Source: Escherichia phage Ecwhy_1
Sequence record: MH791411.1
Reading direction: 5' to 3' (one strand)
DNA: 64,000 bases
Part shown: positions 4,750 through 20,127 of the stretch, piece by piece
How the letters are laid out: each line of letters starts with the position of its first letter
Position numbering within the stretch: the stretch's first letter is position 1
The notes under the pieces: generated by a model
Seen by the model: only the letters and a program-made list of their open reading frames with translations
What the model was told of the DNA's origin: nothing
The model's database searches: none
Program-made: the position numbers and the translations under genes

Positions 4750-4780
4750 TGCATGTTCTCCTTGAGTTAATGAAACTATA

Positions 4781-5299: not shown

Positions 5300-5352
5300 T
5301 TTGTTTCTCCCGTGTTGGTATGTGTACATAGTACTAAAACAATTGAGTACTG

Positions 5353-5607
5353 TCAACGTGATATTAGTTTTATTTTCTTATTGTATTGTTGATGCTCATA
5401 AAGGTTTATCTTTCCTGTGTTCTCGATTACTATCCTGTTGTTAGTGTCCACGTCGATTACACGCAGTTTCCCGTTGCTTAACTTCCTAGGTAATAGGTTA
5501 CCATTAATAAACTCATTAGCAAGCTGTACGGCCTTTGTGATGATTCTCTGAGGTGCTTTATAGTGTACCCGTAAGATGTTATCTTTATATAGTTGAACCT
5601 TAATCAT
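5353..5607 (-). CDS. hypothetical protein (84 aa)
   Basis: ORF; SD AGGA; follows an intrinsic terminator. Confidence 0.55.
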   Translation of the reverse strand: MIKVQLYKDNILRVHYKAPQRIITKAVQLANEFINGNLLPRKLSNGKLRVIDVDTNNRIVIENTGKINLYEHQQYNKKIKLISR

Positions 5608-5620
5608 TTTGTTTGTCCTA

Positions 5621-5647
5621 TAAAAAAGGCGGGAACTGATCCCGCCG
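5621..5647 (-). terminator. intrinsic terminator
   Basis: Hairpin GGCGGGATCAGTTCCCGCC + TTTTTTAT on - strand. Confidence 0.6.
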
Positions 5648-5668
5648 TGTTGTTAGTACTGCAAGTTA

Positions 5669-6064
5669 TTAGATAACCTGGCGGCGTTTACTGTATACTG
5701 TTACACGATTACCCTTACGATCATGTCGGATCTCTTTCTGGTTGCGAATCAGTTCACTTGGACGCTTAAGGTTTGCCAGGTGATCCGCGTGAGTCCATGC
5801 GGTGTGGTTTACCTGTACTTTGATATCAGAATCAGCGATAAACTCATCTTGTGCGTCAAGTATTGCCGCCAGCATATCCGCTCGTTTTAGTTCTGCTGCT
5901 GTCAGTACTGGCTCAGGTGAATTCACAATATCAGAGATTTCTTTGAACTGTACGGCCCAGCGTTGACCTTTCGTTGCATCTTTGCCCATGTCTTTAAATG
6001 CTGCTCCTTCCTCGCGTGCAACAATACGGGCAGCTTCACGGGTAGCGTAGAATTTAGTAATCAT
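5669..6064 (-). CDS. hypothetical protein (131 aa), paralog of 19079-19345
   Basis: ORF; shared motifs KFYATREAARIVAR..FKDMG and DRKGNRVTVY; TTGACA-N17-TATAAT upstream. Confidence 0.6.
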   Translation of the reverse strand: MITKFYATREAARIVAREEGAAFKDMGKDATKGQRWAVQFKEISDIVNSPEPVLTAAELKRADMLAAILDAQDEFIADSDIKVQVNHTAWTHADHLANLKRPSELIRNQKEIRHDRKGNRVTVYSKRRQVI

Positions 6065-6159
6065 GGTATACATCCTATTAGTTGAGTTAGTACTACAAGT
6101 TAGAGTCTATTATAAAGTACTATCTGGGCAATGTCAAATAGTACTTTAAATGGATTCTA

Positions 6160-6483
6160 TTACATGTCTTTCTTACGTTTTACATCGTGGTAGCGAACTG
6201 TTATTTCTTTGTTGATCTCTTCCTCGATGCGATGAATAACTTTTTCTTTCGGGTTGAAACCTATAACGGTTTCTTTAATGATCTCCAAGCCCGTGTATTC
6301 GCCTTGTGTACCGTAACCGTATGTAAAGGTTTCGTGTCCCAGGTCTTCCCAGCGGTCGCCAATTAACGCAGACACGTAGCAAGAGTGGTAAGTATTGCCG
6401 TGTGAATCAGTCCACCGATTAACGTTAATGTCAAAGGAGGTTACAATTTTCAATTCTACTTTCTGGGCAAGGATCATAGCCAT
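6160..6483 (-). CDS. hypothetical protein (107 aa), paralog of 13003-13326
   Basis: ORF; shared motif RWTDSHGNTYHSC..FTYGY; promoter+hairpin upstream. Confidence 0.6.
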   Translation of the reverse strand: MAMILAQKVELKIVTSFDINVNRWTDSHGNTYHSCYVSALIGDRWEDLGHETFTYGYGTQGEYTGLEIIKETVIGFNPKEKVIHRIEEEINKEITVRYHDVKRKKDM

Positions 6484-6570
6484 TTTTATTTCTCTCTCTT
6501 TGTTAGGAGGGGAACCATTCCCCTCGCTTGATGTAAACTATTATACAGTACTAAGATACTTTGTCAATAC

Positions 6571-6753
6571 TTATTTTTTGGAAAGTTTACGCATTAATTC
6601 TACGCTTTCTTGTGAACGTTTTGCTACCTGGCAAGCTGTATGGGCAGTAAACATTTTTGTATAGTCTGACGCTTTGCCACCGAACCGAGCGGCACGTTCA
6701 CGGGCACTTGGAACTAATACTATTTCTTTATTACAGATAGTGCACTTAGCCAT
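6571..6753 (-). CDS. hypothetical small protein (60 aa)
   Basis: Trimmed to MAKCTICNKE start; promoter/leader duplicated from the 6160-6483 gene. Confidence 0.5.
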   Translation of the reverse strand: MAKCTICNKEIVLVPSARERAARFGGKASDYTKMFTAHTACQVAKRSQESVELMRKLSKK

Positions 6754-6841
6754 TTTTATTTCTCTCTCTTTGTTAGGAGGGGAACCGTTTCCCCTCACTT
6801 GATGTAAACTATTATACAGTACTAAGATACTTTGTCAATAC

Positions 6842-7117
6842 TTAAGTATTGTAAATGTCGTGAATAGTGATAAAGTTTTTACGACCGTAAACATGTAAAT
6901 CAGTATCAATGTAGTGCTTATCAAGTACATCCTCGACGCTTAAAGACGTGTCGTGAATATCTTCATAAAATTGTGGATCAACAATCGTGCTTAAGTCATC
7001 TGGCGTTAACTTATCGTTAAGGCATTGAACCGCCTGGATATCTGCTTCACGTTTCCATTGTTCCAGATTAGTAGTCAGTACTTGCTCGATTTCGTTAGCT
7101 GTAAGTAAAGTCCGCAT
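6842..7117 (-). CDS. hypothetical protein (91 aa)
   Basis: ORF; SD AAGGAAAC; tandem promoters with long conserved leader upstream. Confidence 0.6.
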   Translation of the reverse strand: MRTLLTANEIEQVLTTNLEQWKREADIQAVQCLNDKLTPDDLSTIVDPQFYEDIHDTSLSVEDVLDKHYIDTDLHVYGRKNFITIHDIYNT

Positions 7118-7185
7118 TTTAATGTTTCCTTATCAGTGGTTGATGTAAGTATTATACTCGTTTACTTTCTATTGTCAAACTATTT

Positions 7186-7262
7186 TATCAGGGGAGTTTT
7201 TCGTATGTCTTACTCCTGGACTACTTAACGGGGTTACTTATTTCGTTCCCCGTCCTGATGTA
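7186..7262 (-). promoter_or_regulatory. conserved ~75-nt structured leader, copy 1
   Basis: Near-identical to 18400-18478, related to 14990-15060. Confidence 0.5.
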
Positions 7263-7432
7263 AAACATTATACTTGATTCTAAGTACAATGCAAGTACTT
7301 TTTTAAAAATAGTTTTCAGTACTAGCCACCAGCAAACAATAGATACATTTATGCACCCTGTGGGCTAATTTGTTTCTATGCGTATATAATAGCAAAGGGA
7401 CTGACCGGAGTCAATCCCTTTTTCAAATATTT

Positions 7433-7582
7433 TTAAACTTCTTTCGGGTTGCGATATGTGATAGCGTTCGGGTACATTTGTTTAATGTTATTCCATGCCT
7501 GGTTAACATTATAACCACTTGATCGAATCAGTTGGTTATTACCGACACCTTGAAACACTACTTCAAATAAGAATTCTTTCAT
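7433..7582 (-). CDS. hypothetical small protein (49 aa, not in ORF track)
   Basis: ATG overlaps stop of upstream gene (ATGA); SD GAGG. Confidence 0.35.
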   Translation of the reverse strand: MKEFLFEVVFQGVGNNQLIRSSGYNVNQAWNNIKQMYPNAITYRNPKEV

Positions 7583-7752
7583 GCTTTCACCTCTCGATCT
7601 GCTTTGCCTTTACGCCAGGCCGTTGCTAATTGTTCGCGTTGCCATAAGTCGAGTGATACGTAAAGTTTTGCATTATCACCCTTCGGATATTCGCCAGTAG
7701 TACCAATCCGATAAAACAGATCTTTCAGTACTGTTAATTCTACCTGGACCAT
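7579..7752 (-). CDS. hypothetical small protein (57 aa)
   Basis: Trimmed to MVQVEL start; promoter+hairpin upstream. Confidence 0.5.
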   Translation of the reverse strand: MVQVELTVLKDLFYRIGTTGEYPKGDNAKLYVSLDLWQREQLATAWRKGKADREVKA

Positions 7753-7839
7753 TATACTTTCCTCTTTGTTAGGAGGGGAACTATTCCCCTTCCGATATAA
7801 AACATTATACACTTTATTCAGTACTGTGCAAGTACTTTT

Positions 7840-8052
7840 TTAATCTTTCAGCCAATGATCCTGAATGAATTTTTCACCGGAACCTTGCTGCATTGATTGT
7901 AACAGACGTTCGCGATGAGCGGCGGCGAATTGCTCAGTACTATGCGTTACACCTGGTTGATATCTGGATTCACCATTTGGGGCGATGTATTGTACATCCC
8001 ACGGTTTTTCGTTAGTATCAGACCATTTACGAACGATTAGTTGACCTTGCAT
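7840..8052 (-). CDS. hypothetical protein (70 aa)
   Basis: ORF; SD AAGAGGAAAG; promoter + hairpin GGGGAGAATCATTTCTCCCC. Confidence 0.6.
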   Translation of the reverse strand: MQGQLIVRKWSDTNEKPWDVQYIAPNGESRYQPGVTHSTEQFAAAHRERLLQSMQQGSGEKFIQDHWLKD

Positions 8053-8135
8053 TTTTCTTTCCTCTTAGTGGGGAGAATCATTTCTCCCCTTCATGTAAAC
8101 TATTATACAGTACTGGATTGCATTGTCAATAGTTT

Positions 8136-8459
8136 TTATTCACCTTGTTTGAATATAGTTTTCTCCATTGATTCCATGATTGCAACCAATACAGCATGGA
8201 TCTCACTTAACGCGGCATCACTAAAAGCATTAATGAATAGGCAATCATTCTCGCGAATATTTTTAATGTACTTATCAGCAGTGGTTGCGAATTCATTCAA
8301 CGGCAGATCAAATGCTTTATCCCATAATGGATGGCGTAACTGTAACAGTACTGGATTATCACGATCACCAGGGGAAAACGTACCAGTGATGAAACATACG
8401 CCCGGAATACTTTCGAACTGGCAACGGACTTCCTTTGTGATAGTAGTATGAATGTACAT
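8136..8459 (-). CDS. hypothetical protein (107 aa)
   Basis: ORF; SD AGAGGATAAC. Confidence 0.55.
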   Translation of the reverse strand: MYIHTTITKEVRCQFESIPGVCFITGTFSPGDRDNPVLLQLRHPLWDKAFDLPLNEFATTADKYIKNIRENDCLFINAFSDAALSEIHAVLVAIMESMEKTIFKQGE

Positions 8460-8486
8460 TTATTGTTATCCTCTATTAAATTAATA

Positions 8487-8675
8487 TTACAGTTTATGAA
8501 TTAATTCTTTATCTAAGCGATAGCGTACATTATTAATGGTAACAGCATTATTTTTAATGCTACGCTGTACGGGTCCACCAGCAATAACAAACGTTGCTTT
8601 ATTGCCCCGAACAATGATAGCACTTCCAGGATTACCGAAATCATCTTGTACTAAAATACTTGATAAGTTTTCCAT
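8487..8675 (-). CDS. hypothetical small protein (62 aa)
   Basis: ORF; SD AAGAGGAAAT; promoter+hairpin upstream. Confidence 0.55.
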   Translation of the reverse strand: MENLSSILVQDDFGNPGSAIIVRGNKATFVIAGGPVQRSIKNNAVTINNVRYRLDKELIHKL

Positions 8676-8753
8676 TTTTATTTCCTCTTAGTAGGGGAAG
8701 ATGTTTCCCCTTGATGCAAGTACTATAACAGTACTGAAAACTAAATGCAAGTA

Positions 8754-9110
8754 CTATGATAAAATCATGATAGGATATTCACTATCTATCAATACCTCGA
8801 ATCCGAAACCTTCGTACCATTCTTTAAGATTAAAGGCGTTATCTTCTCCCGTATCGCATTCTAAGATGATACAATCTGAATCATCGGCGGCATCAATAAA
8901 GGCATTCATTAATTCGTTACCTTCACCATTGCCCCGACTATCAGGATCAACATAAAGAGAATCAATAAACGCTACACGGTCATAATCAAGATCCGGTGCA
9001 ATGATTCCACGTTTAACAAACCAGTACTGCAATTGTGCTACTTTGCCCTGTACTTGATAGCCAGTGATCTCGCCATTGTCAGTAGTACGCGTGATATGTT
9101 GTATTCCCAT
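8754..9110 (-). CDS. GNAT-like acetyltransferase (118 aa), tentative
   Basis: Motifs RGNGEGN (R-x-x-G-x-G) and NAFNLKEWYEGFGF resemble GNAT motifs A/B; SD GAGGATAG. Confidence 0.45.
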   Translation of the reverse strand: MGIQHITRTTDNGEITGYQVQGKVAQLQYWFVKRGIIAPDLDYDRVAFIDSLYVDPDSRGNGEGNELMNAFIDAADDSDCIILECDTGEDNAFNLKEWYEGFGFEVLIDSEYPIMILS

Positions 9111-9173
9111 GATTACTATCCTCAGTTAAGATATAAAACATTATACACTATCTTTCAGTACTGTCAATACTTT

Positions 9174-9431
9174 TTATCTCATAGATCTATGCCAACAATT
9201 ACGCGGATCTCTTTTAAAAGTACTATCATGATCCTCCTGGCAAGTAATACAATACATGCACCCTATAACGGCCTGGCGTCGATTCTCAGGGATTTTATCG
9301 CCGCAGTCGAGGCAATGTACAAGTGATTCTCTTTGTGCGTTAATTTGCTTTCTAGCGTGGTTAACGGCGGCCTGAATCACTGCATGAATCTCGTCTTGTT
9401 CGGCCCCGTCTTTCGCGTATCCTACTGCCAT
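9174..9431 (-). CDS. TraR/DksA-like C4 zinc-finger protein (85 aa)
   Basis: C-x2-C...C-x2-C with CGDKIPENRR; SD GAGG. Confidence 0.55.
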   Translation of the reverse strand: MAVGYAKDGAEQDEIHAVIQAAVNHARKQINAQRESLVHCLDCGDKIPENRRQAVIGCMYCITCQEDHDSTFKRDPRNCWHRSMR

Positions 9432-9589
9432 TATTTTAACCTCATTATAAAAATACTATAGTACTGTAATGCTACAATAATACTACTAGTGTTTATCTTA
9501 TTCAAACCATATGATACTACATATCCACCAGCATTACCACGAATAGTAACGCCTTTGTACTGTCTATATAAATTCAACTGCGTATATTG

Positions 9590-9668
9590 CCTTTGATCAA
9601 GAATTGATCAGAATTATACGCCTTATGCTAAATTGATCCAGTACTTTTTTGATCATTTATTGATCGAT
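9590..9668. repeat. cluster of five TTGATC motifs (GATC sites)
   Basis: TTGATCAAGAATTGATCAGAA..AATTGATCC..TTTTTTGATCATTTATTGATCG. Confidence 0.5.
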
Positions 9669-9760
9669 ATTATATAGTTACATTTGTGCACCCTATGGGT
9701 TAGTGACGTTCTCGTCTTGATGTAAGTATTATGCCAGTACTGGAGGATATTGTCAATAGA

Positions 9761-9964
9761 TTATTTTAATTTTTTTCTGTCATTGATTAATGCTTTCAGT
9801 ACTATACTAATAACTTGCAATGATTCATCAATGACAATGAAATTATTCTCTTTCATTAGATGATAGTTACCATTGATTGTATATTCTAACGAGTACTGTT
9901 TACGTTTAATTTTTGATAATGTTTCTATTTGTTTTTGTACTGATTTCATGCTAATCATTGTCAA
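9761..9964 (-). CDS. hypothetical small protein (67 aa)
   Basis: ORF; weak SD AGGA. Confidence 0.45.
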   Translation of the reverse strand: MTMISMKSVQKQIETLSKIKRKQYSLEYTINGNYHLMKENNFIVIDESLQVISIVLKALINDRKKLK

Positions 9965-10064
9965 ACGTCCTGTAACGCATTCTAACGAGATAAACGGTTT
10001 AGTACTGGCATTGTATAGGGTAAATGATTAAAGCCCACCAGCGTTAACCAGTGGGCTATAATAT

Positions 10065-10208
10065 TACATCTTGCGGATAATCTTAACAGTATCTTTCACC
10101 GATTTACCGTTTTGCTGACATTGCTCGATCATCGCGTATTGTTCTGCGGTCAGATCCTCGCCAGTTTTTGCCAGTACTGCGTCGATGAATGAATCCAGTG
10201 CGATCATT
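10065..10208 (-). CDS. hypothetical small protein (~47 aa, not in track)
   Basis: TTGACA-N17-TATAAT, SD AAGAGAGAAAT, ATG; coordinates approximate. Confidence 0.35.
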
Positions 10209-10297
10209 TTATTTCTCTCTTAGGTTAAGTTAACTACTGTTTATAAAACTTATTATACAGTACTATCAATCTATGTCAATAGTACTGGTAATATATT

Positions 10298-10477
10298 TTA
10301 GCGGTAGTCGTCGTATGCTTTATTCACCTGGCGAATATAACTTTCAAAGGCTTCGTCTACCGTTTCATACTCCCGAACATAATCACCATATGAAACTACA
10401 TACATACCTTTTTGATCTTCAAACGTCATGATGATAGAATCCAGACCAACGATTTCAGTTTTTGCGATGATAGCCAT
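10298..10477 (-). CDS. hypothetical small protein (59 aa, not in track)
   Basis: TTGACA-N17-CATAAT, SD AAGGAA, ATG. Confidence 0.4.
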   Translation of the reverse strand: MAIIAKTEIVGLDSIIMTFEDQKGMYVVSYGDYVREYETVDEAFESYIRQVNKAYDDYR

Positions 10478-10560
10478 TTTTTAATTCCTTAGTAGTGTAG
10501 TTGATAAAAGTTATTATGTCAGTACTATCAAACTATGTCAATAGTACTGTGATAATATTT

Positions 10561-10773
10561 TTAGTTAATGATAGTCAGTGTAAAATTGTAATCACCGCAG
10601 CGATATAGCACGTTATTCCCAAATGTCCCAACTAATCGCACATCACACAAAACGCCGGTTTTTTCTTTTACTTCCTTGATACTTGTAACTCCTGTAATAT
10701 CTTTATTAAAGTATTCATGATCTGAAAATAAAACTTGTTTTGCATTTTTTAATTTCGACCGGATATTAGCCAT
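10561..10773 (-). CDS. hypothetical protein (70 aa)
   Basis: ORF; SD AGAGAGAAAAC; promoter + hairpin GGGGAGAAAAACTTCTCCCC. Confidence 0.55.
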   Translation of the reverse strand: MANIRSKLKNAKQVLFSDHEYFNKDITGVTSIKEVKEKTGVLCDVRLVGTFGNNVLYRCGDYNFTLTIIN

Positions 10774-10869
10774 TTTGTTTTCTCTCTCTGTTAGTGGGGA
10801 GAAGTTTTTCTCCCCTTGATGTAAACTATTATACAGTACTATAATCTATTGTCAAACTATTTTTTTATA

Positions 10870-11211
10870 TTATTCGAAATCTTCTGGACCGGACTGATAA
10901 TCATCTTCACCGTATGCACTTTCTAACCGCTCGCCAGTGTGATCATCAGTTAGTGAGTCATCCTCATAGTTCACGTCTACGCCAGTGATGTAAAACTGGC
11001 TATCGTCTGGATCATTGAAATTAATTTTCTGTATGTTTACAATAACTGTATTGATGCCCAGGACACCGCCATCAGCCGTTACAAAGTACTGATAGTTTTC
11101 GCAACCGCCTGAATTGAAACCGTAATTAATTTCGGCCCGACCATCATTTAAACGCAGTGCCTGGGCGATGATTTCGTTTTCAAAGTTAGATTGAGCAATT
11201 GAGATAGTCAT
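10870..11211 (-). CDS. hypothetical protein (113 aa)
   Basis: Trimmed to MTISIA start; promoter+hairpin upstream. Confidence 0.6.
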   Translation of the reverse strand: MTISIAQSNFENEIIAQALRLNDGRAEINYGFNSGGCENYQYFVTADGGVLGINTVIVNIQKINFNDPDDSQFYITGVDVNYEDDSLTDDHTGERLESAYGEDDYQSGPEDFE

Positions 11212-11663
11212 GATTTGTTTCCTTATTACCAGGGGAAACCGTTTCCCCCTCTCGATGTAAAACATTATACGCTTATTGAGATAGTTTGCAAGTACTTTCT
11301 ACAAATACTTTTAAAATAGTTTTCAGTACTCAATACTCATATAATAGATACACTTATGCACCCTGTGGGCTAGTGAGCTATCTCTCAATGAATATATAAT
11401 AGCAAAATGGCTGACCGGAGTCAACCACTTTTTTCATTTATTTTTAGCTTTTAGAATCGCCGCCTTTCGCGTCATGCCTTGCTTGATGTATTCTTGTACT
11501 TTCGCTTTACGTGCATTCGCTTTATTTGCTTTCGTAAATGCCGAACAACTTTTATAGTTTAAACCTGTTGGATTCATTTAAATCACCATAAAGAATAGAT
11601 AGGTTACTAACAACGCCGCGATCAATGCACCGACCAGGGCCGAACTATAGTAAGCTAATGTTT

Positions 11664-11816
11664 TCATTTTTTAGCCTGAAAGTAATGTTTAATTTGAGCG
11701 GCGGTCAGTGCACAATTACGCAGGAAGTTTTCTGTATAACTGCGGCGAGTACTGAAAGAGAATTGACCTTTGCCGTTACCGATAGTAACATCAAACCGAG
11801 CGTTGTATTGTTTCAT
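11664..11816 (-). CDS. hypothetical small protein (50 aa)
   Basis: Trimmed to MKQYNARF start; SD AGGAGAATC; promoter+hairpin. Confidence 0.45.
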   Translation of the reverse strand: MKQYNARFDVTIGNGKGQFSFSTRRSYTENFLRNCALTAAQIKHYFQAKK

Positions 11817-11897
11817 TTTGATTCTCCTGTTATTGGGGAGAATCATTTCTCCCCTTCATGTAAAACATTATACAGTACTAAAAACTAATTGCAAGTA

Positions 11898-12044
11898 CTA
11901 TTTTTTAGATTTACGCAAACTTTCTACCATCTCAGGAGTAAGGCCCGGCGGGTAGGAAACTACTTCATCAACGAAACGTAAAGGGAATACCCCAGCGAAA
12001 GGTGAACGTGCTTTCTTAGTATTACTCTTTTTTGATGCTTTCAT
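11898..12044 (-). CDS. hypothetical small basic protein (48 aa, not in track)
   Basis: SD AAGGAATATG; promoter+hairpin upstream. Confidence 0.4.
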   Translation of the reverse strand: MKASKKSNTKKARSPFAGVFPLRFVDEVVSYPPGLTPEMVESLRKSKK

Positions 12045-12113
12045 TTCATATTCCTTAATTAGTGGGGAGAATCATTTCTCCCCTTCATGTAAAACATTAT
12101 ACGCGTTTAAAAA

Positions 12114-12323
12114 CTAATTGCAAGTACTATTTGAAAGTAAATGCTCATACGCTGCATTAACTACGTTTTCAATAACCGACTGTACAGAAAGATCCCCCAC
12201 GTCCTGGCTATAGTAGAAATCGCTTACAGTGGTGTCATCGTATGCAAATACTTTACCAGGTACTGCATCAATCACATACATATTAACCTTTAAGATGTCG
12301 ATCTTATCCTGTACAGTAAGCAT
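12114..12323 (-). CDS. hypothetical protein (69 aa)
   Basis: ORF; SD AAAGG. Confidence 0.5.
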   Translation of the reverse strand: MLTVQDKIDILKVNMYVIDAVPGKVFAYDDTTVSDFYYSQDVGDLSVQSVIENVVNAAYEHLLSNSTCN

Positions 12324-12328
12324 ATTAA

Positions 12329-12601
12329 TTAACCTTTTAAGTACTGGCTTAAGTAGTCTTGTTGATCTTCGGTGATTGCAGCCATCTTCCCTAGTACTGG
12401 ATTAATGATATAATCCCCTGTAACGTCCTGTAACGCATTCTCAGGCGGTTTAACGGCTGGGGTAGCCATAGCCATCGCCTGGACTTGTTCGACGCTATAA
12501 CGCTCATATAGGCGGCATTCTTCCGGTGTTAACATAGCATCAATGCGTTTCATTGGTTTAATGATGCTTTCAACTTCATTCAGTACTTGATTAACGTTCA
12601 T
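12329..12601 (-). CDS. hypothetical protein (90 aa)
   Basis: ORF; weak SD. Confidence 0.55.
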   Translation of the reverse strand: MNVNQVLNEVESIIKPMKRIDAMLTPEECRLYERYSVEQVQAMAMATPAVKPPENALQDVTGDYIINPVLGKMAAITEDQQDYLSQYLKG

Positions 12602-12652
12602 GGTATAATCCCCAATATAAGCGGCCTGAATCGACCGCTAACGATGTTTTGA

Positions 12653-12922
12653 TTAATAGGTGTATGGTTGACGTTCAAACAATGATTGCACGTTGTACGC
12701 CCCACTAATGGGCTTTGCTGGTAAATCAATTTTATATTGCTCACGCTTAAAGATAATAAAACGGCAATTGTTTTTAACATCAAAATTGATTGAACGTTCC
12801 AGTAGTTTACCATCGTGCACAAATACAAGATAACCGCTCGCTACTTGTTTTGTAGTACTGGTTGCAACCATAGACCGCCGAACATGTGTACCTGCGTCGA
12901 TTAAAGTACTGATATTTTTCAT
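12653..12922 (-). CDS. hypothetical protein (89 aa)
   Basis: ORF; SD AAGAGGAACG; preferred over overlapping 12598-12828. Confidence 0.55.
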   Translation of the reverse strand: MKNISTLIDAGTHVRRSMVATSTTKQVASGYLVFVHDGKLLERSINFDVKNNCRFIIFKREQYKIDLPAKPISGAYNVQSLFERQPYTY

Positions 12923-13002
12923 TATACGTTCCTCTTAAGTTAATTTAATTTCTTTCCCCTATGCAGACACTATATCAAAGTATCTGCATAAAGTAAAGCT
13001 AA

Positions 13003-13326
13003 TTAAAGATCTTTTTTGCGTTTAACATTCTGTACAGTACAATGCAACGGGATATTAAGATCATTGCACAAACGAGTAAGGGAGGTTTCATCAGTATTAA
13101 GCCCGTCTACTGATTCCTTTAATAGATCTAACGCCGTTTGTTGATATGCATCTTCATAGCCATAAGTAAATGATTCAACCGCCAGATCATTCAAACCGTT
13201 ATCCAGTTCGACGCTTACATGACAAGAATGATAAGTATTGCCATATGAATCAGTCCAACGTTTACCGTCAACATTGATTGCACGGATTGCAGCCAGGGAA
13301 ACGGTGTTAATGATAGTTTTAGCCAT
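13003..13326 (-). CDS. hypothetical protein (107 aa), paralog of 6160-6483
   Basis: ORF; SD AAGGAATAC; TTGACA-N17-CATAAT upstream. Confidence 0.6.
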   Translation of the reverse strand: MAKTIINTVSLAAIRAINVDGKRWTDSYGNTYHSCHVSVELDNGLNDLAVESFTYGYEDAYQQTALDLLKESVDGLNTDETSLTRLCNDLNIPLHCTVQNVKRKKDL

Positions 13327-13415
13327 TTTTGTATTCCTTAAATTAATATGTTGTCTTGATAAAATCTATTATGCCAGTACTATCAAACTATGTCAATAGT
13401 ACTGTGATAATATTT

Positions 13416-13628
13416 TTACTTACTTTCTTTCGCTGCTTTGTGCGTTGCCACTGCCATAACCACATCAGCACGAACAAAGTTTTTAACCGTGTCGCTGTAA
13501 TAATTGATCGCTTCATCAATATCTGCGAACATCCGATACATACCGCACCACGATACTTTATAACCTGCTTTCACTTCTTCCAGCTTAACCAGTGATTTGT
13601 TAACTTTGATTTTAGTAATGATAGCCAT
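13416..13628 (-). CDS. hypothetical protein (70 aa)
   Basis: ORF; SD GAGGAAAAT; promoter duplicated from 13003 gene. Confidence 0.55.
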   Translation of the reverse strand: MAIITKIKVNKSLVKLEEVKAGYKVSWCGMYRMFADIDEAINYYSDTVKNFVRADVVMAVATHKAAKESK

Positions 13629-13707
13629 TTTATTTTCCTCAGTTGTCTTGATAAAATCTATTATGCCAGTACTATCAAACTATGTCAATAGCACTGTGAT
13701 AATATTT

Positions 13708-13851
13708 TTACTTACTTTTTGCTTTCTTGATTGCTTCCACCTGGTCGGCCCATTCTTTACCCCATACTTGTAAATTATAATGGTACTGGCAAAGAGCAAC
13801 GCCCCGCTTTAAACCCGTAATAGATTTCTGACCACATTGACAAGTTTTCAT
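13708..13851 (-). CDS. hypothetical small Cys-containing protein (47 aa, not in track)
   Basis: SD AAGGAAAC; promoter + hairpin upstream. Confidence 0.4.
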   Translation of the reverse strand: MKTCQCGQKSITGLKRGVALCQYHYNLQVWGKEWADQVEAIKKAKSK

Positions 13852-13937
13852 TTTAGTTTCCTTGTAGTGGGGAGAACCATTTTCTCCCCTTGATGTAATG
13901 TATTATACTTTATTCGATTTACTTTGCAAGTACTTTT

Positions 13938-14165
13938 TTAATTTAATTCATCAAGGCAAAGGATACGCTCAACGCCCAAATCAGTTAAACTAATCGACGG
14001 CACTTGATAGGTTTCAATGTATGCTACACTTGCCCACTGACCGAACTCATTAACGGCCCAGGTATTCATTGCATTTTGCAATTCCGCACCTTCCTTGTTG
14101 GTAATGACTGCAACTACTTGTTCGTTGCCAGTAGTACCAGATACGCGAGTAATGATAATAGCCAT
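13938..14165 (-). CDS. hypothetical protein (75 aa)
   Basis: Trimmed to MAIIIT start; promoter+hairpin. Confidence 0.55.
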   Translation of the reverse strand: MAIIITRVSGTTGNEQVVAVITNKEGAELQNAMNTWAVNEFGQWASVAYIETYQVPSISLTDLGVERILCLDELN

Positions 14166-14401
14166 TGTTTTGATTCCTTTGATTTGGAAGGAGAACCGTT
14201 TCCCCCTCTCGATGTAAAACATTATACGCTAATCTCTTAATCGTGCAAGTACTTTTTATTACTTTTTGCAAAATACTTTAAACGCTCTCAATCGCGTTCT
14301 TACAGCCTTAACGCCACCAGCTAGGGCAATGCATCAGATAATCAGTTTAATGCGTTAGAATCGTTTCTAGGCGGTGCTGGTGGCATGGTAAACGATAAAC
14401 A

Positions 14402-14430
14402 CAAAAAAGCCCACCGTTTAAGGTGGGCTA
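14402..14430 (-). terminator. intrinsic terminator
   Basis: Hairpin AGCCCACC-TTAAAC-GGTGGGCT + TTTTTTGT on - strand. Confidence 0.65.
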
Positions 14431-14450
14431 GTGATTCAGTACTTTAATTG

Positions 14451-14933
14451 TTATGCTTCAACTTTGCGATGAGATTCGATCCATTCCTCGCGAGTCATAC
14501 CGCTGGCGTTAATCGCGTCCAGTACTACCGCAATGCAGTTACCACGCACCGGAATCAGATATTCTTCCCCGTTGTCCAGTACTACCGCTACGCGTTCCTG
14601 AATCCATTTTTTGGCTTTTACTTCTGGCTTGTCTTCCCCATACTTAACCGCCAGGGCTTTTTGTGCCATCTCTGTAACTACTTCCAGATCCAATCCAACT
14701 ACTGCCGCCTGAATACTTTCGATTGTTGCTTGTAGTTCTGCTTCACGGGCCGCCTTTGCCGCTTCAATTTCTGCCGCTTTATTTGCTTGTAGTTCTTTCG
14801 CAGTACTGTACGCGATGTTAAAATTATTGCGTACCGCTTTCATGGTATCGTTATCCAGTTCAGCCAGGATCTCAGCCGCGACGTTAGTTTCATTTGCTAC
14901 CAGTGCTTTGATGAATGATTTTACATTAGCCAT
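14451..14933 (-). CDS. hypothetical Ala/Glu-rich protein (160 aa)
   Basis: Trimmed to MANVKS start; SD GAGGA; long structured leader; terminator downstream. Confidence 0.6.
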   Translation of the reverse strand: MANVKSFIKALVANETNVAAEILAELDNDTMKAVRNNFNIAYSTAKELQANKAAEIEAAKAAREAELQATIESIQAAVVGLDLEVVTEMAQKALAVKYGEDKPEVKAKKWIQERVAVVLDNGEEYLIPVRGNCIAVVLDAINASGMTREEWIESHRKVEA

Positions 14934-14989
14934 TTTATAAATCCTCAATTAAAGTTTAGTTTACGTTTATTAGTGTATCAAAGTTTTCT

Positions 14990-15060
14990 CGACGTGTCCA
15001 GTTTTTCGTTCGACTTACTGGCGGTCTACTTAGTGCTCCCCGTCTTGATGTAATACATTC
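14990..15060 (-). promoter_or_regulatory. conserved structured leader, copy 2 (diverged)
   Basis: Shares ACATCAAGACGGGGA..AAGTA..CGAAAAACT with copies 1 and 3. Confidence 0.4.
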
Positions 15061-15130
15061 TACGCTTTTCTGCGGTAATGTCAACTACTTTCTTAAAACT
15101 ATTTTCAAAGTATCTCAGTACTACGATACT

Positions 15131-15160
15131 ACAAAAACAAAAAAGCCCACCAGGTGGGCT
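15131..15160 (-). terminator. intrinsic terminator
   Basis: Hairpin AGCCCACCTGGTGGGCT + T-run on - strand. Confidence 0.6.
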
Positions 15161-15166
15161 ATGTAC

Positions 15167-15397
15167 TTAATCAGTGAGTAAAATATTAAACACTTTACCA
15201 TTTAACGTTATTGGTGCACTGCTACCAGGCACAAGATCCGTTAGTATACCTGCAATCGCTTTATCATTGGCTACCTTTCCAGTGTCCAACAGTACTACAG
15301 TACTGATAAGATTAACGCTCGTTTCAATATCATAATGCACGGCGTTAAGTAGTTGTGTAGTACTGCTTTCGTTAAGTAAAACAATTCGCTTAGTCAT
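15167..15397 (-). CDS. hypothetical protein (76 aa)
   Basis: ORF; terminator downstream. Confidence 0.5.
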   Translation of the reverse strand: MTKRIVLLNESSTTQLLNAVHYDIETSVNLISTVVLLDTGKVANDKAIAGILTDLVPGSSAPITLNGKVFNILLTD

Positions 15398-15418
15398 GAT
15401 GTTACCCCGTAGTATCTA

Positions 15419-15718
15419 TCAACGGCAATTAATAACGCCGGTATGAGTTACTTTCTCGGTATCCATTACAGTGACCGAACCGCGTTTAGCACTGGCATCA
15501 TAATAAATTGTCGTGCTACCGTTTTCGTCTTCTTCATGGAACGGGCCGTTTTTAAATGCTTCCGGCTGGATCTCTAAATCCTTTAATACAATCTCGCCAG
15601 TTCTTTCATCGGTCATTGCAACAGTGCACTGAATGAATTTTTCACTACTTACATCTAATGACGCATTAACAGCGAAAGAGGAAACAGATAAAGCCAGGGC
15701 GATGATTGCAATTTTCAT
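15419..15718 (-). CDS. secreted protein (99 aa), predicted signal peptide
   Basis: N-terminus MKIAIIALALSVSSFAVNA; SD AAGGATAATC; promoter+hairpin. Confidence 0.6.
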   Translation of the reverse strand: MKIAIIALALSVSSFAVNASLDVSSEKFIQCTVAMTDERTGEIVLKDLEIQPEAFKNGPFHEEDENGSTTIYYDASAKRGSVTVMDTEKVTHTGVINCR

Positions 15719-15802
15719 TTGATTATCCTTAGTTACCAGGGGAAACCGTTTCCCCTTGCGATGTAAAATATTATACAGTACTAAAAACTAATTGCAAGTA
15801 CT

Positions 15803-16039
15803 TTATGATTTTTTATAAAACATTTCAGCAGTGATATTTTTACCCGTTGGCTGTACTTTATCCAGAATTTTTTGATGCCCTGGTCGTCCAAAGGAATATG
15901 ATCCGTAAACAGTAAACCAGTAGTTACCCTCAGTGTTTACATGTACAGCACAATAAGGAACACCACGCGATTCATCACTAGTAAAGTGTGATACCGTTCC
16001 CGTTACATTCGCAGACGTTGATTTGATTTGTTCGACCAT
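15803..16039 (-). CDS. hypothetical protein (78 aa)
   Basis: ORF; SD AAGGAATAAG; promoter+hairpin. Confidence 0.55.
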   Translation of the reverse strand: MVEQIKSTSANVTGTVSHFTSDESRGVPYCAVHVNTEGNYWFTVYGSYSFGRPGHQKILDKVQPTGKNITAEMFYKKS

Positions 16040-16148
16040 TTTCTTATTCCTTAGTTACCAGGGGAACCGCTCCCCCTATGCAAAACATTATACGCGTTTA
16101 AAAACTAATTGCAAGTATTTTAATAAAAAGTATTTGAAAAATAGTTGT

Positions 16149-16290
16149 TGACAAGTGCATCCAGTACTGGCATAATTACTACATCAAGACGAAACAGTCA
16201 CTAACCCACCGGGTGCCGAGATCCGTCTATTAAATGATTCAGTACTGAAAAAGTAACGGGGAGTTATTATCTCCCCGTGTTGTTATTTTG
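16149..16290 (+). ncRNA. candidate small RNA: + strand promoter plus about 100 nt ending at a bidirectional hairpin
   Basis: TTGACA (16149)-N17-CATAAT; leader ACATCAAGACGAAACAGTCACTAACCCACCGGGTGC; hairpin GGGGAG..CTCCCC at 16256-16278 + T-rich; no ORF. Confidence 0.35.
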
Positions 16291-16504
16291 TAAGGTATAA
16301 ACAGAAGTCGCCTTTATTTGCTACGCCGCCAGTGTAACGCGAGGAATAGTTAGAAACGTCCTGGACTTCTGCTATTACCAGGGTATCATCATTCAATTCG
16401 TCGCAGAAGCAAACGGCTGGATCTTGTACGCCGATTTTGTCGGCATGTTCCCGCATAGATTTAACCAGTGCTTCCAGTTGGGAAAGAGTAGTGATATTAG
16501 CCAT
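16283..16504 (-). CDS. hypothetical protein (73 aa)
   Basis: Trimmed to MANITT start; promoter+hairpin. Confidence 0.55.
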   Translation of the reverse strand: MANITTLSQLEALVKSMREHADKIGVQDPAVCFCDELNDDTLVIAEVQDVSNYSSRYTGGVANKGDFCLYLTK

Positions 16505-16588
16505 TTTATTTTCCTCATTACCAGGGAGAACCATTTCTCCCTTTGATGTAAACCATTATACAGTACTGAAAACTAATTGCAAGTACTT

Positions 16589-16777
16589 TTAATTAAATTC
16601 CATAAAATCATTTTCAACGTGCACAACAATCTGATTATTTTTAAAGGACGCAGAAAACTCTATACAATCATAAACCGCTTTTTCTGTTACCAGACTATGA
16701 GCACCAATCGGATTAATTGGGGATTGAATTGTTTCAATCTCGTTACCTTGTTCATTAACGATTAAAATATTAAACAT
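16589..16777 (-). CDS. hypothetical small protein (62 aa)
   Basis: ORF; SD CAGGAGTAAC. Confidence 0.5.
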   Translation of the reverse strand: MFNILIVNEQGNEIETIQSPINPIGAHSLVTEKAVYDCIEFSASFKNNQIVVHVENDFMEFN

Positions 16778-16816
16778 TGCCGTTACTCCTGGATAGTGTT
16801 AACTCGATATAAAGTA

Positions 16817-16999
16817 TTATACGCCTTTATTGCTTAGTGTCCAGTGATCACGCATCATACGCCCCGCACGATCCCAGCTAGTAGGCATGGGTATGCCTTG
16901 CAATTCGTTAGGGGAGATCTCGACCTCGATCCCTACATCAATAACAGTCATTCCAGCTTTCGCAGCTTGCTCGCGGATAACCTCAGATAATGTTGTCAT
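16817..16999 (-). CDS. hypothetical small protein (60 aa)
   Basis: ORF; SD CAGGAGC; leader duplicated with 16589 gene. Confidence 0.5.
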   Translation of the reverse strand: MTTLSEVIREQAAKAGMTVIDVGIEVEISPNELQGIPMPTSWDRAGRMMRDHWTLSNKGV

Positions 17000-17073
17000 G
17001 ATTAAAGCTCCTGGATAGTGTTAACTCGATATAAAGTATTATACAGTACTGAAAACTAATTGCAAGTACTTTT

Positions 17074-17334
17074 TTAATATTGTTTGTCGTCGTCTTCCTC
17101 GATGAATTGACCGACGAAATGATCTACTTTCGCTTTGAGGCTTTTATAATCTTCTTCTACTTCCGTTAAACGTTCCTGGTAGTATTCCAATGCTTCAAGA
17201 TACGCCGCCTCAGCAGTTTTTGCACGCATAGCTAAATTCATTCCACGCGTTTCATCAAATAGCCAATAACCATCGGTGCACTGGCTAATAGATAATGACT
17301 TGCTTAGTACTGTATAGCTAATTACTTTACTCAT
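17074..17334 (-). CDS. hypothetical protein (86 aa)
   Basis: ORF; SD GAGGGTTATC. Confidence 0.55.
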   Translation of the reverse strand: MSKVISYTVLSKSLSISQCTDGYWLFDETRGMNLAMRAKTAEAAYLEALEYYQERLTEVEEDYKSLKAKVDHFVGQFIEEDDDKQY

Positions 17335-17391
17335 TAGATAACCCTCAGTAAAGGCGGGAACTATTACCCGCCATTATCTCAGTACTGAATA

Positions 17392-17631
17392 TTACATTCC
17401 AACCATTGCAGCACGGATCGCAGTAGTGCTATACTTAAAGCCGTCCGGCGTTGTAGTAGTACCGTTGGCTTTTAATCTGCGGTACATACATTCCGCAGCA
17501 ATATCTTTAGTTCTACTTTGTGCGATGCAACTTTGAGCAAGCCGATACAATGACTCACCGTTATTAATCCAAAGGCTTACATTCCAATGAGTTTTGTTTT
17601 TGTGTCCGTTGTAAGTTTTAGTACTAGCCAT
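17392..17631 (-). CDS. hypothetical protein (79 aa), paralog of 19432-19671
   Basis: Trimmed to MASTKT start; shared motif GHKNKTHWNVSLWINN..PDGFKYSTTAIRAAMVGM. Confidence 0.6.
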   Translation of the reverse strand: MASTKTYNGHKNKTHWNVSLWINNGESLYRLAQSCIAQSRTKDIAAECMYRRLKANGTTTTPDGFKYSTTAIRAAMVGM

Positions 17632-17721
17632 TTTTAAATCCTCGTTTGAGCGGGGAACCACTCCCCGCCTCGATATAAAGTATTATACGCTTTTAAACTT
17701 AGTTTGCAAGTACTTTTTAAA

Positions 17722-18333
17722 TTAATATTCGATTGATTCCACTACGCCATCAATAACATTGAATTGATACTCGTTACCCTCAATCAGTGCCGTAATGTTT
17801 TCAGTAGTGAATTGATCCTCATATGCATTCTCTAAATCACGGTACAACTTGCGGGACAATTCACGAATAGTTTCAGTGAGTAGTTCCTCAAGCTCATTAA
17901 CTAACGTTTCTTGTTTTGCGGTTAAATCAGTGTAAGCCGATTCAATGTACCCGCTTACAGTATTCTCATGCGAGTAGTGGGAGTGCGAACGTTTTACACT
18001 CATCGCCAAATCATCTTCATTCAGCAAGTGACGGATTGAGCGATACTTAGTTAATGCTCTTACCTTGCGTAAAAACTTCACTGCGTCAACGTGGTCAGTA
18101 CTGATTGATGCACCGTCACCCTGGGACCAAAAACCACTGAATTGTATTTCAGCGTCATTAATGCCATATTCCGGTAGTACTGTTTCTTTATAGTATTCAA
18201 TTTCACTTTCAGAAAAATAATTGTCGTTTGAGTTTTTTTCACGTTCCCGAACCAGTTCGATAGCTGACGTTTGTTGTTCTGCGTTCAATTCAGAAAAAGC
18301 CATAACATAAGTAGTAGTAGTGATAGTTTTCAT
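17722..18333 (-). CDS. hypothetical acidic protein (203 aa)
   Basis: ORF; SD GAGGGTTAC; tandem promoters with long leader. Confidence 0.65.
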   Translation of the reverse strand: MKTITTTTYVMAFSELNAEQQTSAIELVREREKNSNDNYFSESEIEYYKETVLPEYGINDAEIQFSGFWSQGDGASISTDHVDAVKFLRKVRALTKYRSIRHLLNEDDLAMSVKRSHSHYSHENTVSGYIESAYTDLTAKQETLVNELEELLTETIRELSRKLYRDLENAYEDQFTTENITALIEGNEYQFNVIDGVVESIEY

Positions 18334-18399
18334 TTTGTAACCCTCATTCAGTAGTTGATGTAAGTATTATACGCTTTTAAAAACATTTGTCAAACTATT

Positions 18400-18478
18400 T
18401 TATCAGGGGAGTTTTTCGTGTGCCTTACTCCTGGGCTACTTAACGGGAAGTTACTTATTTCGTTCCCCGTCCTGATGT
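18400..18478 (-). promoter_or_regulatory. conserved structured leader, copy 3
   Basis: Near-identical to 7186-7262. Confidence 0.5.
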
Positions 18479-18557
18479 AAAACATTATACGCCTTTAAAC
18501 ATAGTTTGCAAGTACTTTTTAAAAATAGTTTTCAGTACTGAATAGTAAAAAAAAGTA

Positions 18558-18650
18558 TTGACAGCATTATCAAGTACTGGTATAATATACCCCATGACAA
18601 CAGCTAACCCACCGGGTGCACAATTGTAACTATACTAAACTAATTTTTCT
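18558..18650 (+). ncRNA. candidate small/antisense RNA from a + strand promoter
   Basis: TTGACA-N17-TATAAT then AACCCACCGGGTGCAC; convergent with a - strand promoter at about 18700-18735. Confidence 0.3.
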
Positions 18651-18760
18651 ATAGATACACTCCCGCACCCTATGGGCTACGGCTTATCTGCCAATGAATA
18701 CATTATGCCAGTACTGACAAAATAAGTCAATACCGGCAATTGTAAAGATTTGTAAACTGC

Positions 18761-18997
18761 TTATACTGCAATCGCGTCCAGGCTATAATAATAATAAGTG
18801 CCGTATTGGTGTACTTTATTACCTTTTATTTCAGTACTGAATGAATCCGAACGGTTTGCATATGATGTTAATTTAAAGTACTTTGATTTGCTGATACGTT
18901 GCCATACACCACAGATCCGCTGTAAGTAAGTAGTTTTATTCGTGGTAGTATCTTTTACGGTTTTAACTTCAGTCATATACATATTAGTCATTTTCAT
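18761..18997 (-). CDS. hypothetical protein (78 aa)
   Basis: ORF; SD GGAG (start may be the third codon ATG); promoter + hairpin. Confidence 0.5.
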   Translation of the reverse strand: MKMTNMYMTEVKTVKDTTTNKTTYLQRICGVWQRISKSKYFKLTSYANRSDSFSTEIKGNKVHQYGTYYYYSLDAIAV

Positions 18998-19078
18998 TAC
19001 TCCAGGTTATAGGCGGGAAGAGTTCCCGCTCTCGATGTAAAACATTATACGCCATTAAACATAGTTTGCAAGTACTTT

Positions 19079-19345
19079 TTATTCAAGTACTGCAATCTTT
19101 TTAGTACGGTACACGGTCACGCGGTTGCCCTTTCGGTCGAGCTTTATTTCTACCACTCGACGCGATACACTATCGGGACTTTTTAAGGCCGCTAACCAGT
19201 ACTGTAATGATCTGGCGGTACTACGCTTTACAATGGCCCAACGTTTACCACGTTCCGATTGTACGCCCATATCTTTAAACGTTGCCCCGTCCTGGCGTGC
19301 GGCGATCCGAGCTTGTTCACGCGTCGCAAAATACTTAATTTTCAT
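19079..19345 (-). CDS. hypothetical protein (88 aa), paralog of 5669-6064
   Basis: Trimmed to MKIKYF start; SD AAGGGCAAC. Confidence 0.6.
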   Translation of the reverse strand: MKIKYFATREQARIAARQDGATFKDMGVQSERGKRWAIVKRSTARSLQYWLAALKSPDSVSRRVVEIKLDRKGNRVTVYRTKKIAVLE

Positions 19346-19431
19346 GCTGTTGCCCTTATCGTTGGTGTATGAATAAAACACTATTATAAAGTACTATCGC
19401 AAAAAAATGATAGTACTTTAAATAAATTCTA

Positions 19432-19671
19432 TTACATTCCAACCATCGCCGCACGGATCGCAGTAGTGCTATATTTGAATCCGTCCGGTGTTTTATCTTG
19501 TCCAGTCTGTTCTAAAAATAACATCATATGACGGGCCGCATCATTGCGATTAGTGCTATCGTTAATAAAGTCCTGGGCCAACCGATACAATCCCTCATCG
19601 TTATTAATCCAAAGGCTTACATTCCAATGAGTTTTGTTTTTGTGACCTAAGAACATTTTTGATTTAGCCAT
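19432..19671 (-). CDS. hypothetical protein (79 aa), paralog of 17392-17631
   Basis: Trimmed to MAKSKMF start; promoter+hairpin. Confidence 0.6.
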   Translation of the reverse strand: MAKSKMFLGHKNKTHWNVSLWINNDEGLYRLAQDFINDSTNRNDAARHMMLFLEQTGQDKTPDGFKYSTTAIRAAMVGM

Positions 19672-19764
19672 TTTTTTAATCCTCTTATATAGTGGGGAAC
19701 TATTCCCCACCTGATGTAAAACATTATACGCCATTAAACATAGTTTGCAAGTACTTTATTAAAC

Positions 19765-20127
19765 TTATTTGTAAATTTTGCCACTGTCAGCCCATACCAG
19801 GAAACGAGGCATATTATCCCATGCATCTTGTTTTAAGTTTAAGCCGTGCAATTCCTCAGTTGTTGCCATCCCTGGTACTGGCTTACTACACACCGCGAAA
19901 TTTTCGCCCATATACTGATAAACCATCGTCAAATCATTTGAGATCATTATATGGATCATTGAATCCAGCATCAAAGTAGCGGCGTATTGTTCACGCTTAA
20001 GCGGCAACATTGCAATAAGTTCCCGATAAGCTGCAATGTGAATTTTTACAGTTTCAGCCGGAAGACCTTTCATCTCATCGCGGAAGTTTACCAGGTTAAG
20101 CATGATTTTATTGATTTGAGTCGCCAT
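19765..20127 (-). CDS. hypothetical protein (120 aa)
   Basis: Trimmed to MATQINK start; promoter+hairpin. Confidence 0.6.
   Translation of the reverse strand: MATQINKIMLNLVNFRDEMKGLPAETVKIHIAAYRELIAMLPLKREQYAATLMLDSMIHIMISNDLTMVYQYMGENFAVCSKPVPGMATTEELHGLNLKQDAWDNMPRFLVWADSGKIYK

Follow-up and report, generated by a model that had tools for sequence, protein, structure and literature searches.

Three pairs of related small genes lie on the minus strand of a 64,000-nucleotide (nt) stretch of the genome of Escherichia phage Ecwhy_1 (record MH791411.1), which was analysed as a whole and is called here the window. We think it probable that these are real early genes of the Asteriusvirus jumbo coliphages, located in the direct terminal repeat (DTR) of these phages, that the pairs arose and have been kept by modular recombination and not by simple duplication followed by drift, and that their products are small early binding proteins. 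The pairs, named here families A, B and C, consist of A1 (5669..6064) and A2 (19079..19345), B1 (6160..6483) and B2 (13003..13326), and C1 (17392..17631) and C2 (19432..19671). Because one family C gene is a mosaic, because the C genes have closer relatives in other phages, and because a third allele, B3, occupies the B2 locus in some genomes, horizontal cassette exchange and allele replacement have been at least as important as duplication.

We propose that each gene is a small stand-alone expression cassette, made of a promoter, in some cases a hairpin, a ribosome binding site (RBS) and an open reading frame (ORF) of 79-131 codons. In family A, promoter and gene would have been duplicated within the lineage, the linker of the protein would later have been deleted in A2, and alleles would have been reshuffled between the two loci. 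Families B and C would each occupy two conserved loci at which highly divergent alleles are swapped in and out by homologous recombination, with crossovers in the conserved 5' and 3' gene ends and in the repeated regulatory cassettes. These swaps would include exchange with the early-gene arrays of unrelated coliphages of about 150 kb (Phapecoctavirus, Vequintavirinae).

The three pairs are genuine genes

A preliminary description of this DNA had recognised the pairs from shared sequence motifs. All six ORFs are present on the minus strand with these motifs, and the similarity within each pair is significant in BLASTP: A1 and A2 share 44 of 124 residues (35%) with one 45-residue gap (E 4e-19), B1 and B2 share 42 of 107 (39%) over 107/107 residues and free of gaps (E 7e-30), and C1 and C2 share 52 of 79 (66%) over 79/79 residues (E 1e-37). 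When the 438 ORFs were compared all-versus-all by BLASTP, A, B and C were the only genuine protein-level pairs in positions 1-22000, each with exactly two members, and a phmmer comparison of 69 non-overlapping minus-strand ORFs gave the same three as the sole genuine pairs of that stretch.

The other ORF pairs listed in these comparisons are repeated promoter or leader DNA translated in over-extended ORFs. Since such artefacts do occur (2327/10870, 4781/5081, 10870/13938), the similarity within A, B and C might likewise come from repeated promoter or leader DNA, or from low-complexity sequence, translated in frame. The codon-level comparison ruled this out, and we give it next to no chance: the three pairs align along the whole coding sequence (CDS) with many synonymous codon differences (24 among the 43 identical residues of B, 15 among the 53 of C), they match curated family hidden Markov models (HMMs), and they are kept as CDSs across dozens of genomes. 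Each pair falls into a single PHROG, all three of unknown function: phrog_8127 for A1 and A2 (E 3.5e-34 and 3.2e-26), phrog_6246 for B1 and B2 (7.9e-36 and 6.8e-41; 1.1e-42 for B3) and phrog_871 for C1 and C2 (6.3e-29 and 1.4e-29). C1 and C2 also match Pfam DUF7249 (PF23907) with 50.7 and 47.4 bits, the gathering cut-off being 27 bits. Relatives carry the six genes as annotated CDSs, and for all six the ratio of non-synonymous to synonymous substitution (dN/dS) is 0-0.5 against the orthologs in phages vB_Ec-M-J and SP27; these are therefore real, functional genes under purifying selection.

Location in the Asteriusvirus terminal repeat

Asteriusvirus jumbo coliphages (the PBECO4/121Q group) match positions 5000-20500 of the window at 92-98% nt identity, the best matches being vB_EcoM_E9.1, JP4, fEgEco12 and vB_Ec-M-J. 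The annotation of vB_Ec-M-J gives its positions 1-21525 as direct terminal repeats, and Megablast placed position 1 of that genome at window position 21864 and its position 21436 at window position 1. Because this repeat maps onto 1..21864 of the window, all six genes lie inside one nearly complete DTR copy in reverse orientation (minus strand), with the outer genome terminus near 21864 and the inner end about 90 nt past window position 1. In fEgEco12 a DTR of 20,993 bp has been confirmed with PhageTerm and restriction digests, and the paper that reports this genome is silent on paralogs and promoters within it (PMC13070987).

The stretch 1-21864 consists of about 55 small leftward early genes and is a hyperplastic early-gene array. 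Synonymous divergence (dS) from the same relative varies from 0 to 0.5 between neighbouring DTR genes, and the array is therefore mosaic. Apart from the genes of families B and C, at least five DTR genes are 69-83% identical in nt sequence to early-array genes of Phapecoctavirus and Vequintavirinae phages, where they stand in a different order. The shared stretches (10243-10477, 10559-10773, 13314-14227, 17025-17455 and 19765-20184) match the Phapecoctavirus phages vB_EcoM_3A1_SA_NWU and ECO340P2 and the Vequintavirinae phage A7_1.

Family C: two allele types of a widely shared gene

C1 (ortholog EcMJ_007) and C2 (ortholog EcMJ_003, directly upstream of A2) encode proteins of 79 amino acids (aa). 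Family C comprises 711 protein clusters and is found in about 290-330 phage records, among them those of Vequintavirinae, Stephanstirmvirinae, cyanophages and phages of Ralstonia, Vibrio, Enterobacter and Clostridium, and PF23907 was recognised on all 120 listed homologs. C1 is 92.6% identical to a gene of vB_EcoM_3A1_SA_NWU over exactly the CDS, including an exact run of 131 nt (CDS nt 61-191), while the first 51 nt of the same Phapecoctavirus gene are 98% C2-type and only 80% C1-type. C2, in turn, is 83-85% identical to many Phapecoctavirus and rV5-like (Vequintavirinae) genes. Between C1 and C2 themselves the nt identity is 69% overall, falling from 78-91% in the flanks to 43% in the middle third (nt 94-186), and codons 10-30 have synonymous differences at 0 of 19 identical residues against 14 of 33 elsewhere.

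C1 and C2 are thus not each other's nearest relatives, as a duplication would have left them. A neighbour-joining tree, unbootstrapped and built on 79 columns, places them in separate clades, each interleaved with alleles from phage contigs of about 150 kb. The phage EJP2, a divergent Asteriusvirus, keeps both C loci with other allele types, and two C copies are also present in the Vequintavirinae phage A7_1. Both genes of the pair have the same promoter and hairpin cassette, which is of a common type. Their 5' regions are closer to each other than that of C1 is to the genes of its central type, a likeness suggestive of exchange inside this genome. Since the gene is mosaic and has closer relatives elsewhere, the C "paralogs" are best described as two allele types of a mobile gene, with the conserved 5' and 3' blocks as recombination anchors.

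An AlphaFold2 (AF2) model of C (predicted local distance difference test score, pLDDT, 91.5) has four helices, and the variable segment (residues ~33-60) corresponds to the C-terminal half of helix 2 plus helix 3. On this model, the conserved N- and C-terminal parts may form a scaffold and helices 2-3 a swappable specificity part. An alternative idea is that DUF7249 proteins are small Cro-like regulators of the helix-turn-helix (HTH) type, whose swappable helices 2-3 would be the DNA-recognition element, C1 and C2 binding different operators. A Pandoraea prophage has the C gene as the first of an operon divergent from an S24 repressor of the CI/LexA-like kind, a metagenomic phage contig of 76 kb (locus L020) has it divergent from a CapR-domain gene, and C1 is basic (isoelectric point, pI, 9.9). 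We nevertheless regard this idea as rather unlikely: no HTH could be recognised by profile search, the most conserved part of the protein is an unusual polar N-terminal motif (GHKNxxHWNVSLWINNDE) and not an HTH, C2 has a net charge of merely +2, and in three other contexts (L010, L019 and the window) the gene lies within arrays of small genes. The position divergent from a repressor-like gene is seen in two of five contexts outside this phage group, Pandoraea and L020. A scan of genome contigs for family C gave 7 loci only, with inconsistent neighbourhoods, and a literature search found no papers on DUF7249.

Family B and the polymorphic B2 locus

B1 (107 aa, ortholog EcMJ_037) lies directly upstream of A1, an order, B then A, that is kept in EJP2. 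B2 (107 aa, ortholog EcMJ_017) lies at a polymorphic locus. In SP27, compared with the window, one 114-aa gene, B3, takes the place of B2 and of the 70-aa gene upstream of it (13416-13628); B3 bears the family motifs RW..YGNTY, F.YGYG and DVKRKKDL. At least eight other Asteriusviruses, SP27 among them, have B3 at this locus. A tblastn search with B1 as the query had made B2 appear absent from about eight Asteriusviruses; this was rejected, as those genomes hold the divergent B3 allele at the B2 locus.

About 115 Phapecoctavirus and Vequintavirinae records contain proteins with 84-86% identity to B3, and in vB_EcoM_3A1_SA_NWU a B3-type gene lies directly downstream of the C gene. B1, B2, B3 and the EJP2 B protein are roughly equidistant, with star-like pairwise identities of 33-46%; the EJP2 gene occupies the B1 position yet is closer to B2. 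As in family C, B1 and B2 are not each other's closest relatives, against the expectation for a duplication, and they carry different cassette types, with no shared non-coding flank. The left boundary of the SP27 replacement is at the cassette and start codon of the 70-aa gene, and the right one within the B gene, at its conserved 3' end. Two 77-nt cassettes that are 99% identical (13350-13426 and 13642-13718) enclose the 70-aa gene, which is 83% nt identical to a stretch of phage A7_1.

From 7 sequences, AF2 gave a B2 model (pLDDT 85.4) with a beta-meander plus helices, which Foldseek matched to uncharacterised phage proteins of Stenotrophomonas phage Salva and E. coli phage Av-05 (E 1e-7 to 2e-6). 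The invariant residues of the family are R23, W24, G29, N30, T31, Y32, F53, Y55, G56, Y57, V101, K102, K104, K105 and D106, the last of which, in the C-terminal tail, is the sole invariant acidic one. An RNase H-like nuclease was rejected, as there are no conserved catalytic acidic residues (DEDD/DDE), and an ASKHA/Hsp70 nucleotide-binding domain found no support, hhalign of the B alignment against that of E. coli DnaK giving a probability of 0.2%. The predicted model points to a non-catalytic RNase-H-like alpha/beta fold (beta-beta-beta-alpha-beta-alpha) with a conserved basic C-terminal tail.

It is conceivable that DUF7249, and perhaps phrog_6246, represent modular specificity proteins, in which the conserved gene ends double as homology arms, so that phages of different subfamilies infecting the same cell could swap a central cassette (helices 2-3 in C), two loci being kept for two specificities against variable host targets, defence systems or operators. 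We put this forward as a tentative idea with a small chance of being correct.

Family A: a probable unit duplication

In A1 (131 aa, pI 9.5, ortholog EcMJ_038) an acidic linker joins two basic modules, a conserved N-terminal one of about 40 aa and a C-terminal one. A2 (88 aa, pI 11.0, net charge +14, ortholog EcMJ_004) is a form that lacks the linker. When the two loci are aligned, the stop codon of the gene upstream marks the exact start of the similarity, which takes in a promoter of a private subtype, the junction sequence TAATAGAAT..ATTTAAAGTACTAT being common to both. This private promoter subtype and the junction at the stop codon indicate that promoter plus gene were duplicated as a unit by an internal duplication.

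Both A loci are kept throughout Asteriusvirus, the divergent EJP2 included. By tblastn, all of the ~36 Asteriusvirus records have two A copies, or four places where the record holds both DTRs. A single copy, of 30-38% identity, was detectable in RaK2-like, Munch-like and fENko-Kae01 jumbo phages and in the 145 kb phages of the GAP31/4MG/PVPSE1 type, and no close relative (>60%) was found outside Asteriusvirus. EJP2 keeps both local orders, C-A and B-A. At the A2 position it has a long form of 125 aa, with an A1-like linker and an A2-like C-terminus, to which A1 is 63% identical; at the A1 position it has a third type, to which A1 is only 32% identical. With a long form at the A2 position of EJP2, A2 looks like a linker-deletion derivative, and alleles seem to have moved between the loci. 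Family A is explained most simply by a lineage-specific duplication.

Among 1.84 billion representatives, the family A HMM found only 48 clusters, all of stand-alone proteins of 74-184 aa with no informative fusions. Common to them are the conserved basic module at the N-terminus (FFATRxxAR..G.FKD.G.DAPKGERWAV), a linker that is acidic and variable, and a C-terminal strand that is basic; the only Pfam matches among the 48 representatives were stray ones to TelA, DUF2080 and EF-Tu, in 1-2 members each. Judged by their charge only, the A proteins probably bind nucleic acid.

Duplication, exchange or independent acquisition

The preliminary description took the three pairs for old, diverged duplications and saw in them a region that evolves by duplication and diversification. 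The paralogy is real and the copies are indeed old and diverged, but a simple in-place duplication fits family A only; duplication with diversification describes A best, while in B and C allele replacement and horizontal exchange dominate.

In its pure form, a duplication model would have all pairs arise in place inside the Asteriusvirus DTR and diverge by point mutation, the genes in other phages being later exports. Its attraction is that both the A and the C loci keep their positions in EJP2, that the A unit includes its own promoter, and that A and the B1/B2 types are largely confined to the Asteriusvirus lineage. We find it improbable, since C1 and C2 are much closer to genes of other subfamilies than to each other and a mosaic gene joins both types, since in C and A the allele types do not track the loci between EJP2 and this phage, and since the B2 locus can hold an allele common with Phapecoctavirus, in a family whose identities are star-like and whose EJP2 member at the B1 position is nearer to B2.

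At the other extreme, there would have been no duplication at all, and every copy would be a xenolog, independently acquired from an early-gene pool shared by large enterobacterial myoviruses. The demonstrated cross-family exchange of C and B3 is what such a pool would yield, as are the further DTR genes shared with Phapecoctavirus and Vequintavirinae and the presence of family A in phages of the GAP31/4MG/PVPSE1 type as well as in other jumbo phages. We doubt this account too: no close relative of A was found outside Asteriusvirus, the two A loci have a private promoter subtype and a junction in common, which argues for an internal duplication, and the likeness of the C1 and C2 5' regions suggests exchange within this genome. 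We thus prefer modular recombination acting on both duplicated and exchanged cassettes.

Several points weigh against this preferred reading. The copy counts in other lineages hinge on the sensitivity of tblastn, which overlooked the B3 allele once; the family C tree is unbootstrapped, on 79 columns; and the conserved nt at the gene ends could partly stem from selection and not from recombination. A role of the regulatory cassettes at indel boundaries was looked at in one case, the SP27 replacement. Early expression of the six genes is suggested by their promoters and their position in the DTR. As to function, the three families gave no NCBIfam or informative Pfam match, and profile searches of the PDB with A (8 and 48 sequences), B and C yielded nothing credible.

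Promoters, hairpins and repeated sequences

A repeated sigma-70-type promoter cassette, with at least 28 copies in positions 1-24000, stands ahead of almost all small leftward genes. Ten minus-strand promoter-like sites match at 12/12 positions and about 20 more at 10-11/12 (4500-22000); the total of promoter-like sites was 97, where 59 would be expected. A sigma-70-type promoter of its own, on the minus strand, is found for each of A1, B1, B2, C1 and C2, five of the six genes. That of A1 (6109..6137) is TTGACA-17-TATAAT, 12/12, with AGTACT palindromes on its flanks, and just 3' of A1 there is an intrinsic-terminator-like hairpin followed by a T-run (5628..5646, minus strand). The B1 cassette (6505..6567) comprises a 12/12 promoter (6540-6567) and a hairpin in the 5' untranslated region (UTR) (6505-6528, about -13.9 kcal/mol). 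The B2 promoter (13368..13396; TTGACA-17-CATAAT, extended TG) lies within the 77-nt cassette 13350-13426 and has no hairpin. The cassettes of C1 (17649..17709; promoter TTGCAA-16-TATAAT at 17682-17709) and C2 (19691..19750; promoter at 19723-19750) both have a 5'-UTR hairpin, at 17649-17669 (about -15.6 kcal/mol) and 19691-19711 (about -14.2 kcal/mol) respectively. A2 is preceded by a promoter-like remnant (19383..19417, minus strand), visible in the alignment of the A loci, which keeps the A1 frame AAAGTACTAT...ATAGTACTTTATAAT with a decayed -35 and is absent from the listed promoter matches; A2 may be co-transcribed with C2.

The 5'-UTR hairpin is thus present in B1, C1 and C2 and not in A1 or B2. 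Overall, 17 of 30 promoters have a G+C-rich hairpin (-12 to -15.6 kcal/mol) about 12 nt past the -10, with no T-run and followed by the RBS. Since it lies 3' of the promoter and has no U-tract, it is more likely a 5' hairpin of the mRNA than a terminator, and it may stabilise the mRNA. The stems are of the types GGGGAGAA..TTCTCCCC, GCGGGAA..TTCCCGC and variants, with a further example at 8070-8090 (minus strand), and a Phapecoctavirus early gene has the same order of promoter, hairpin and RBS. Compensatory changes were seen in four of six predicted hairpin pairs, in a MAFFT alignment that had the stems out of register, and this result is not relied on. A search of positions 1-24000 against Rfam gave nothing.

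The palindrome AGTACT is the commonest hexamer of the window (1-64000), with 286 sites against 21.8 +/- 5 expected from dinucleotide shuffles. Its density is about 6 per kb inside the DTR and 2-4 per kb outside it, 5.5-5.9 per kb in other Asteriusvirus loci and 0-0.5 per kb in Phapecoctavirus and Vequintavirinae loci. In the early promoters it has fixed spots, abutting the -35 (AGTACTTGCAA) and 1 nt 5' of the -10 (AGTACTGTATAAT). A literature search found no paper combining 'AGTACT' and 'jumbo phage'. Distinct from the promoter cassettes is a second intergenic repeat of about 93 nt (ATAGATACAC..GCACCCTGTGGGCTA..TATATAATAGCAAAGGGACTGACCGGAGTCAATCCCTTT) with a long hairpin inside, present in 3-7 copies (1315-1407, 4072-4164 and 7342-7434; also 9674-9706, 11344-11376 and 18651-18683). 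Some 750-900 nt inside the outer DTR end, at 20962-21113, an 8-bp unit resembling CGTCTAGC is repeated in tandem, with no fewer than 9 overlapping copies. Just beyond that end, at 22167-23940 on the minus strand, about 9 small paralogs encoding 61-77 aa stand in tandem (pairwise E down to 3e-27). Positions 26881-42136 contain 12 consecutive plus-strand genes of ~360-415 aa; in EJP2 the corresponding place is occupied by genes of like size with the annotations 'GTPase regulator' (RCC1-like) and 'BNR repeat'.

Possible roles and significance

What could the six proteins do? We infer that they are non-enzymatic binding proteins, made right after DNA entry for host takeover, regulation or counter-defence, and that keeping two divergent alleles may widen the range of targets. 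Asteriusvirus jumbo coliphages are under characterisation for therapy, and about 70% of their genes are unnamed. Small DTR genes have been traded with unrelated coliphages that share the same hosts, one trade falling inside a gene with an exact footprint of 131 nt. The three families, above all the B2/B3 locus and the two C loci, are candidates for host-takeover and counter-defence screens.

Comparison with known systems

The catalogue entries for DUF7249, phrog_871, phrog_6246 and phrog_8127 hold no function and no record of a two-locus, multi-allele layout or of cross-subfamily exchange. Family B differs from RNase H-like and ASKHA proteins in its lack of conserved catalytic acids and of similarity to the DnaK profile, and its closest folds are those of uncharacterised phage proteins.

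Phage T5 has a long direct terminal repeat with small host-takeover genes under strong host-type promoters, which is the first DNA to enter the cell and is present twice per genome. The Asteriusvirus DTR resembles this pre-early region in having small early genes with host-type promoters in a long terminal repeat. However, Asteriusvirus is an unrelated jumbo myovirus, it is not known to use two-step DNA transfer, and Pfam and PHROG scans gave no similarity to T5 pre-early proteins.

The closest described analogue of the DTR array is the modular shuffling that promoter early stem-loop (PeSL) regulatory cassettes mediate in T4-type phages, within their hyperplastic regions (Arbiol et al. 2010, PMC2839356; Comeau et al. 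2014, PMC4122927). In both systems small early genes that are non-essential and of unknown function are densely arrayed, a repeated cassette with a strong sigma-70-like promoter and a stem-loop stands ahead of each gene, and there is gene gain, loss and replacement among close relatives, seen here in one replacement boundary and in a gene between 99% identical cassettes. No new kind of system is revealed; the T4 picture of a mobile regulatory cassette is extended to another phage group. It differs here in three respects: the stem-loop lies in the 5' UTR, past the promoter, and lacks a U-tract; the array lies inside a direct terminal repeat; and some of the exchange appears to use the conserved ends of the CDSs as homology arms, across phage subfamilies.

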